The notes below the pieces were generated by a model that saw only the letters and a list, made by a program, of their open reading frames with translations, did no database searches and was not told where the DNA came from. A stretch of DNA of 63,162 nt, the filler included, from Collodictyon triciliatum (Eukaryota), in assembly GCA_043381765.1 (NCBI GenBank). It is 3 parts of 3 records of this genome, joined end to end, with 100 filler letters (N's around TTAATTAATTAA, not from the genome) between each part and the next. Parts side by side here need not be neighbours in the genome. Positions count along the whole stretch, not along the records: positions 1 to 24,871 come from JBHJMP010001066.1; 2 more parts are not named here. One strand, written 5' to 3'. Made by a program: the position numbers and the translations under genes. This document shows positions 16,301-19,300 of the stretch, one piece after another. The first letter of the stretch is position 1, and every line of letters starts with the position of its first letter.

Positions 16301-19300
16301 CGCCTCATTCTCATCCTTTTTCTCTTTAACCCAGTATTCCCTGGTAAAAGGGAAATAGAAGGGAAGATTTGTTCCGTATTCCTTCGGAAGAACCTGATTG
16401 TCATACGCTTACATTTAATACTCCCATCTTTGTAATGAATAAAGAGATAATTCGAGTATAAAAGTAAATATCTACCTTCTCGAAATACCAGGTCAAAGTG
16501 GAATACAAAATTATCGACGTGATAATGCACCACTATTATACGTGTGGGAATGATTTAATTAATTTTATGACGAAAGGGAGTATATTGATTTGTTTTGTTA
16601 TATTAAGCAAAGTTTATCGATCCATTCAATTACCAAAGCTGCACCGAAGCTAAAGTCGCCTTCATACATGTTATCAAAGGTAACTCCTGTAATTTATACG
16701 GTATAAATAAAAACAATTCATAGTTGAGTATCTTCAATCAAGAGATAACTGAAGTCTCTTTAGTATAAATGAAGTTTGGGGGAACCTTTATTGGCACTCT
16801 CATATTTGACAAACTCGTTCATAGCAAATGTAAATCCAGTTGGGGAGAGGAAAATAGATGCGAATCCCTTTCCAGCAGCTTGACCCTCAGAGTTAAATCC
16901 GATAGGAGGCAGAGATGAAGCCAAGAACAACAGAGGAGAAACGATTGCTAATGCAGAATTGTGTTTATTATCGAATATTAAAAATGTGAATAAACTCTGA
17001 AAGAATTACCAAACATACTTTTTTACAAAAAAAAAGTATGTAAAAGTAATAAGATTACCAGCAACTTTGGCTTTGTTGAAGAAAGTAGAAAGCATGTTTA
17101 CTTGTTAAGAGAAACAAATATAAAAGAGGGAAAGTGCATAATCAAGTGGTTGAAAATGTATTATTGAAAAAGATAAAGTTTTTGAAAAGGATATGAAGCA
17201 GAACATCATCACACTCATGGAGAACAGAAAGACAACCCCGAAAATGAGTGTCCCATCGCAATGCTTCATTTTAATGTAATTAGCGGGGAGCATTCAAATT
17301 TGGTAACATAAAATAAAACGCACTACTCATAGATTATACGTACCTGGAATATCGTTGGTGCTAGAAGTATTTGAATCAAGATCGAAGAAATGAAAAATAT
17401 GATGAAATATGTGATTATCCATGAAGCATTGAAGACCCAAGACTAATCGTATTGACTAATTAGATAGATATAATCCAAATATATGATTCACATTGAAAGA
17501 CAAGGGTAGGTAATTGGGGCGTTTATAAACTCATTCAAACGTAATATTACCTTCAACCCCATCATTTTCATCCCCTCCTTAATGCGGTATTCTTTCTCCT
17601 CAACAATATTCTTGACCAAACGGGAGACGGGCCAAAGGAATGCAAAGGCGATAAATAGTCCCATAATTCCTTGTAGTGCATCTATGAAATGGTAATTTTT
17701 TTCCGAATTGATTGAATAAACTATGTTGCTAATCGGCGGTAATTTATCGGGGAGGAATTGACTCTTTTAATGTATACACACACCAAAGAATGAAGTGCGC
17801 TGGTACTCTGGAGTCGGGAAAGGGGCAGCAGAAAAGACGAATGGCACATCTTTTTTAGTGACATAGGTGTTCACTATATCATAGTAGCTGATTAGATCTT
17901 ATTTATTTTTTGGGCAAAATGTAGTCACAAGATATTAACACTATAATATCCTCATGGGACCCTTTTCTACCAAAAAAAAAATTACCAAGGAACTGGTTGA
18001 TGGTGTTCTGCATGGTAATGTATCCATTCTGGAGATAGTAATCATTATTCGTATTTCCACTCTCAATTTCATCAATCCAATCTATGTCATATTAAAGTGA
18101 TCAAAACTGATACCCAGAAGTTTGGAACAGTAATAATAAATAAATATAGATAAGCCGTAATTCAATTAAATTCACGACCAATCACATCCACATGTTATGG
18201 CATTAGAATTTTGAATTGTATATGAAACCGTACCAACAGGAACAACATTGAGCTCATCATAAAGTACTTCACTCGTCGGGATGTCAGAGGCATTCATGCG
18301 AATTGAATATGTGCACTGGGATTGGCCGCAATTCTTGAAGATGACAGCTGTTTGTTTGTTTGTTTGTTTGTTTGTTTGTTTGTTTGTTTGTTTGTTAATT
18401 TGTTTGCTTTTGTTACAATCACCGCACACAAATGGGACTATACTTGTTATTGCTTTTGTTATTTACACAAGTGAGCTGTTAATTAAATTGAATTATATAG
18501 GGCTGGAGATGGAAACACGTTGGCTCAGACTTGAAATATATGCCGAACCAATGAAATGTATAGTATTGTGTACAAACCTAGGTATATTTCGTCAGGCTCA
18601 GACTCTTGGTCTAGGGCATAGTCCTTGAGAGCCTTCTCAGATTCAAAGTAGCAATTTCCACCAATACCAGTATCACATCCAGCAAACAGTTCAGAAAACC
18701 CATTTGTCTCGTTCAAATACTTGATGAAGCTGTCCACGAAGTCATTTTTTGGAGCTAGGGCCAGGTGGTATCGATCCCCATTAATTTTGGCACTGACTCC
18801 AACGTTAACGAAGGCGTTAAAGTTAAGTGGTGTAGTCTCGTACTCGTCCCATTGTTCTGTTAATGAAAAAAAAATACTTATTTTAGTTTATATTTTAAGG
18901 AAAAAGAGAAAAAAGAAAAAGAAAATAAAAATAAATATCAGTCGTACAAATAACATAGAATGGGGAAAAATACGGGCTTCGTATTTGTCCTGGCCAGATG
19001 CAGACCAGCCGAGAACGATAACAACCATTAGCAGCGCAGGAACAAGCAATTCGGCTAAAGTACTCACTGGTCTTCTTTTCTGAGAGGCCGAGGAATTCAT
19101 TTGAGCAGTAAACGAAGGAATCGATTAAAGGACATAAAATATACGGAATATAGATTTTGAAGAGGAAAAAAACAGTAGAGAATGAAGTTGAGAAAGTGCC
19201 GAGGGAGAGAAAGGTATATATGTAAATAGAATTAAATTAAAGAATGAAAATAAGAGAGTATTGGGTAATGAGGATAGGGATAGGGATAGGGATAAAGGAT

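Follow-up and report, generated by a model that had tools for sequence, protein, structure and literature searches.

Does the collodictyonid Collodictyon triciliatum splice introns of the minor-spliceosome (U12) type and, if it does, was the intron that raises this question inherited from a distant ancestor or gained within the lineage? The question is posed by a 99-nt stretch in an ABC transporter gene of the window, i.e., the whole 63-kb stretch of DNA that was analysed, for which an earlier note had proposed an AT-AC intron in phase 0. Here we describe the gene that hosts the intron, weigh the evidence for the junction and for the spliceosome that would act on it, and discuss the two readings of its origin. 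Coordinates of the features are given in Table 1.

The host gene and its introns

The neighbouring exon of the gene is similar to nine relatives, one of which is labelled ABCA3 by its source. The two best, P0003 from Diphylleia rotans (the nearest) and P0004 from Rigifila ramosa, are full-length, transcript-derived proteins with the ABCA-type domains PF12698 and PF00005. Matches of 47 exons to P0003, with identities of 40-100%, run from 19425 down to 7343. Judged by this colinear alignment to residues 4-1670 of P0003, together with the Pfam domains of that protein (PF12698, PF00005), the gene encodes a full transporter with membrane domains of the ABC2_membrane_3 type and ABC ATPase domains, two of each, as expected of a member of the ABCA subfamily. 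The AT-AC intron falls on a codon boundary within the part of the gene that encodes the first membrane domain.

Homolog-guided refinement resolved 40 introns of the gene, a count that leaves out five unresolved stretches; 39 of these are GT-AG introns (22 in phase 0, 15 in phase 1 and two in phase 2) and one is AT-AC. Another solution with AT-AC ends, 248 nt in length (number 9), was rejected, as the chain had missed a small exon and the RNA joints divide the stretch into two GT-AG introns. The gene is extremely intron-dense, its ~5 kb of coding sequence being interrupted by at least 47 introns, with exons that are often 60-130 nt long and resolved introns of 80-323 nt. Long, perfect or near-perfect (AGAT)n, (TTGT)n, (TAG)n and (TTTG)n microsatellites are found within its introns, and similar arrays occur across the window.

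Among other features of the window, the RAD54B gene (36398-42859, plus strand) is also intron-dense, with at least 24 exon matches, and one of its exons shares 88% identity with a protein of Diphylleia rotans, as against 57% for the next match. The ABCA and RAD54B genes, which are unlinked, thus both place the organism close to Diphylleia, among the collodictyonids of the CRuMs supergroup, although identities well below 100% set it apart from D. rotans itself. The stretches 42001-44000 and 58001-60000 have a G+C content of ~49% versus ~36% elsewhere; the genes that they overlap encode MORN repeats and a RAD23-like protein with an XPC-binding domain. Runs of N are present at 24872-24971 and 49863-49962, each of them a pair of 44-N runs 12 bases apart within simple repeats, and there are further runs of 475 (40931-41405) and 147 (52353-52499).

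Table 1. Features of the ABCA-type gene and of the region around its AT-AC intron (positions along the window)
Feature	Position	Strand	Details and evidence
Host gene, full-size ABCA-type ABC transporter, at least 47 introns	7343..19425	-	47 colinear exon matches to P0003 residues 4-1670
Previous intron, GT-AG, 80 nt, phase 0	17264..17343	-	Joint 17263/17344 in four of four runs; homolog-guided refinement
Upstream coding exon, 69 nt, ends ...MMFCF	17195..17263	-	RNA contig pieces 17193-17263; homolog-guided refinement
AT-AC intron, very probably U12-type, 99 nt, phase 0	17096..17194	-	Sequence, RNA joint and best homolog-guided solution
5' splice site ATATCCTTT, first nine bases of the intron (+1 to +9)	17186..17194	-	Matches [A/G]TATCCTT
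Branch-site motif TCTCTTAAC	17104..17112	-	Candidate branch adenosines 17106 (-11) and 17105 (-10)
Downstream micro-exon, 37 nt, starts MLSTFF...	17059..17095	-	RNA contig piece 17059-17093 plus joint slack; homolog-guided refinement
Next intron, GT-AG, 111 nt, phase 1	16948..17058	-	Joint 16947/17059 in X1, X3 and X4; homolog-guided refinement
Microsatellites in ABCA introns	9023-9124, 11169-11332, 13762-13859, 15444-15565, 18349-18406		

Splice signals, the junction in RNA and competing readings

The U12 consensus, as worded in the text of a preprint on Physarum, consists of an [A/G]TATCCTT donor and a TTCCTT[G/A]AC branch site (bioRxiv 10.1101/2020.10.12.336362). Read on the minus strand (17194..17096), the 99-nt intron opens with ATATCCTTTT and its last bases are AAAC. 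Its donor, ATATCCTT followed by T at 17194..17186, agrees with the U12 consensus from the first intron base and at nine of nine positions, and is unlike the GTAAGT/GTATGT-type donors of the 39 other resolved introns of the gene. Near the 3' end, TCTCTTAAC matches the branch-site consensus at seven of nine positions, with two mismatches, and two of its bases likewise deviate from the classic TTCCTTAAC. The six bases AAGTAA lie between this motif and the terminal AC, and since they are purine-rich, no pyrimidine tract follows the branch motif. Left unspliced, the 99-nt stretch brings a TAA codon into the reading frame, whereas its excision fuses ...MMFCF to MLSTFF... in phase 0. The homologs P0003, P0004 and P0005 (from Ochromonas) align without a gap across the junction, and the residues C101 and F102 just before it are invariant.

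A search of sequencing runs using positions 16600-18250 returned 22 runs, mostly freshwater or lake metatranscriptomes, of which 20 contain part of the stretch; this occurrence suits a freshwater collodictyonid. Contigs from four of them (X1-X4) were compared with positions 15650-18300; X4 is only guessed to be RNA, and its contigs are spliced at seven joints. Thirteen joints fall within this region, 12 of them having GT-AG ends when read along the minus-strand gene, where the plus strand shows CT..AC. The thirteenth joint, 17093/17193, skips 99 nt with a slack of 3 nt, such that the excised piece may extend from 17094-17192 up to 17097-17195, with ends on the gene strand of AT-AT, TA-CA, AT-AC or CA-AA. 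We assign the joint to the AT-AC intron 17194..17096 because this is the sole known boundary class in the slack range and because the U12 signals lie at these same ends. Contigs of three of the four runs (X1, X3 and X4, from studies P1, P3 and P4), 99+% alike, show the joint, and the AT-AC ends are thus used in RNA; X2 has no contig over the site, a gap in cover that carries no meaning. This support comes from assembled contigs and not from raw reads, and for that reason it proves that the junction exists and not how efficiently it is used.

Most of what the earlier note had claimed for the intron itself is upheld by these results. An AT-AC, U12-type, phase-0 intron in an ABCA transporter is what the sequence, the RNA joint and the homolog-guided solution all point to, and the junction 17095/17195, which the note had named as the one to look for in RNA, is included in the slack of the joint seen in X1, X3 and X4. 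The donor and the branch site 10-11 nt from the AC end were correctly recognized, with adenosines at -11 and -10, as was the restoration by splicing of FCF followed by MLSTFF, the sequence over which P0003, P0004 and P0005 are gapless. The note had found one alternative, a GT-AG intron deleting five residues. Such an intron does exist in frame, at 17214..17101 with a net loss of five residues, but it is not the only one, as a further in-frame GC-AG alternative that had escaped mention lies at 17199..17101, is also 99 nt long with an offset of 5 nt, and swaps two invariant residues. Both are excluded because they fall outside the range permitted by the RNA joint. More generally, all GT/GC-AG readings of the intron were rejected, given that the RNA joint excludes every one of them and that they alter or delete conserved residues.

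The expectation that standard gene finders would miss the intron also holds, since a finder restricted to GT/GC-AG boundaries is forced onto a wrong junction. One limited to GY-AG could, for example, choose the GC-AG alternative and silently replace the two invariant residues. Genome annotation must allow for AT-AC introns, as otherwise the ABCA gene is broken or its membrane helix loses conserved residues.

A joint of this kind could also be an artefact, produced by template switching of the reverse transcriptase at a short repeat or by an error in contig assembly, and three bases do fit on either side of it. We consider this extremely improbable because the same joint recurs in three independent runs from three studies, because it preserves the reading frame and takes out a stop codon, and because it yields the gapless sequence of transcript-derived homologs; it coincides, moreover, with full U12 signals. 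As the junction is used in RNA, carries signals of the U12 consensus and gives a spliced product that is gapless against homologs, we conclude with high confidence that the stretch 17194..17096 is a true AT-AC intron of the U12 (minor-spliceosome) type.

Introns with AT-AC ends that are removed by the major (U2-type) spliceosome exist in other eukaryotes, and the TTAAC of the branch motif would also fit a loose U2 branch consensus. It is nevertheless very unlikely that the major spliceosome removes the present intron, because its donor matches the U12 consensus at nine of nine positions and is unlike the other resolved donors of the gene, all 39 of them; the branch motif, which lies at -10/-11 and is not followed by a pyrimidine tract, also speaks against such removal. 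For a U12-type intron, by analogy with other eukaryotes, U11 and then U6atac would pair with the donor ATATCCTT, while U12 would pair with the branch site TCTCTTAAC, 10-11 nt from the 3' end, with adenosine 17106 or 17105 bulging, and the intron would be removed by the U11/U12/U4atac-U6atac/U5 spliceosome. By comparison with eukaryotes in which the minor spliceosome has been characterized, we infer from the U12-type intron that the organism must retain this machinery (U11/U12/U4atac/U6atac).

Minor splicing elsewhere in the window and in other eukaryotes

The window holds 12 copies of the motif RTATCCTT where 5.28 are expected, and a count of 12 was reached in none of 100 shuffles; this count does not decide the identity of the intron. 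None of the other RTATCCTT or RTATCYT sites in the 63-kb window has an open exon frame both before and after it. Two sites were rejected as U12 donors by their position relative to RAD54B coding exons, 38094 being inside such an exon and 37371 just before one, and a third, 22890, was rejected as its branch-like motif falls in an open reading frame. A second convincing U12-type intron was not found within the 63 kb, and the ABCA intron is therefore the lone evidence for minor splicing in this genome. Comparison of the 63-kb window with Rfam, using the gathering threshold as well as a cut-off of E<=1, gave no snRNA match, which in a stretch of this size speaks neither for nor against minor snRNAs in the genome. 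The sole matches were to two weak bacterial families and to mir-297, the latter at 21487-21547 on the minus strand with 42 bits versus a gathering score of 90, and almost certainly caused by the (CATA)-type repeat on which it lies. Since blastn-short revealed no second copy of the intron sequence in the window, there is no hint of a spreading element.

The intron shares several features with the canonical U12-type AT-AC introns known from animals and plants, viz., the donor ATATCCTT, a branch motif that ends in TTAAC and has its adenosines 10-11 nt before the 3' end, the terminal AC, and its occurrence as a single minor intron amid many GT-AG introns of one gene. It differs from them in having TCTCTTAAC instead of TTCCTTAAC as branch motif, in being short (99 nt) and in phase 0, and in its collodictyonid (CRuMs) host. 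Another point of comparison is Blastocystis sp. subtype 1, whose minor introns, as described in the text of a pan-eukaryotic survey, number in the hundreds, are 77% AT-AC and 49% phase 0, and have a mean length of ~42 bp (PMC10639083). The resemblance lies in introns that are mostly AT-AC, often in phase 0 and short, whereas in the window of C. triciliatum one such intron, of 99 nt, is seen in 63 kb, and the two organisms belong to unrelated supergroups.

In Physarum polycephalum, the branch motif has changed to TTTGA, the U12 snRNA has changed along with it, and U12 introns number in the thousands, going by the text of the preprint (bioRxiv 10.1101/2020.10.12.336362). The extended donor described there, [G/A]TATC[C/T]TTT, resembles the present case, as does a branch adenosine confined to a narrow range of 10-12 nt before the 3' end (bioRxiv 10.1101/2020.10.12.336362). 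The branch motif of the ABCA intron is, however, near-classic, the gene has a single U12-type intron among the 40 that were resolved, and the other candidate sites in the window were all rejected; neither a TTTGA branch motif nor a high density of U12 introns, the marks of an expanded or transformed system like that of Physarum, was found.

Our literature search found no report of minor splicing in collodictyonids or other CRuMs, Collodictyon and Mantamonas included, with the papers listed for Mantamonas judged by their titles and abstracts. In its main text, the pan-eukaryotic survey of minor introns mentions no CRuMs taxa, and its supplements may list some (PMC10639083). We thus apparently have an intron of a well-known kind in a lineage from which it had not been reported earlier. 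It places a functioning U12-type intron, and presumably a minor spliceosome, in the collodictyonids, which belong to a deep eukaryotic branch (CRuMs). This agrees with the idea of a minor system that was already present in the last eukaryotic common ancestor and has survived in a patchy manner. By itself, the intron leaves our knowledge of how minor introns work or arise unchanged.

Age and origin of the intron

We think it likely that the intron is old, i.e., that it predates the collodictyonids and was kept as U12-type in an intron-rich genome that loses introns slowly, while being lost elsewhere. The retention by the gene of 47 or more introns over ~5 kb of coding sequence agrees with such a history. 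Minor introns are, moreover, described in the texts of the survey and of the Physarum preprint as typically ancient and rarely gained (PMC10639083; bioRxiv 10.1101/2020.10.12.336362), and the text of the former gives an estimate of ancestral minor-intron density that is vertebrate-like (PMC10639083). A point against an old intron is that no homolog examined shares its position.

The position was compared in metagenome contigs, which were scanned with a three-protein alignment of the region. The scan gave 40 loci, all of them distant, with 27-49% identity overall, short pieces reaching up to 59% and, in one case, up to 74%; none of them represents genomic DNA from a close relative. A single ungapped match spans the U12 site in 34 of the 40 loci, and the remaining six do not reach it. 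None of the 34 spanning loci has an intron at the U12 codon boundary. Eleven of the 34 do carry introns, as their matches are split elsewhere, although L028-030 look like one organism and L039 and L040 likewise. The absence of the intron from the 34 loci is compatible with a lineage-specific origin and equally with loss elsewhere. Accordingly, the comparison of this site among ABCA homologs, which the earlier note had called for, agrees with the gain suggested there but agrees just as well with loss.

A gain of the intron as U12-type within the collodictyonid/CRuMs lineage would account for its absence from all 34 spanning loci in spite of the introns that 11 of them carry elsewhere. It would also suit the second membrane half of the gene, which has no intron at the equivalent place while the next intron position is mirrored there, and the phase 0 of the intron has been a further argument. 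However, the loci compared are of unknown organisms, are only 27-49% identical, may represent paralogous subfamilies and include no close relative, and the window holds no second copy of the intron. We regard the gain as unlikely, because the gain of minor introns is described in the texts of both sources as extremely rare (PMC10639083; bioRxiv 10.1101/2020.10.12.336362) and because the gene has retained very many introns.

The phase of the intron, on which, together with the host family, the earlier note had based its case for a recent gain, weighs little in this regard. Across eukaryotes, a mean of 22% of minor introns are in phase 0 according to the text of the survey (PMC10639083), which makes phase 0 poor evidence of recency. 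Even in Physarum, which had been cited as a precedent and is the one clear case of mass gain, the expanded, gained set of U12 introns is described in the text of the preprint as biased away from phase 0, with 26% in that phase (bioRxiv 10.1101/2020.10.12.336362). Nor is phase 0 distinctive within the gene, where 22 of the 39 resolved GT-AG introns share it.

It is quite improbable, in our judgement, that two things are true together: that CRuMs keep a working minor spliceosome, for which this would be the first direct evidence, and that the intron is a lineage-specific phase-0 U12 gain, separated by 37 nt from an ancient GT-AG intron downstream of it, in a genome of exceptional intron density. 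If true, a lineage-specific phase-0 gain would join Physarum as the second natural system for studying how minor introns are gained.

The GT-AG intron that follows the U12-type intron (17058..16948, phase 1) lies 12 codons past it and is mirrored in the second membrane half of the gene by an intron at 10752..10641 (minus strand), also in phase 1. In seven of the metagenome loci (L025, L028-030, L032, L039 and L040) the protein match ends at residue 114-115, the position of this next intron. The site 17058..16948 looks like an old intron position.
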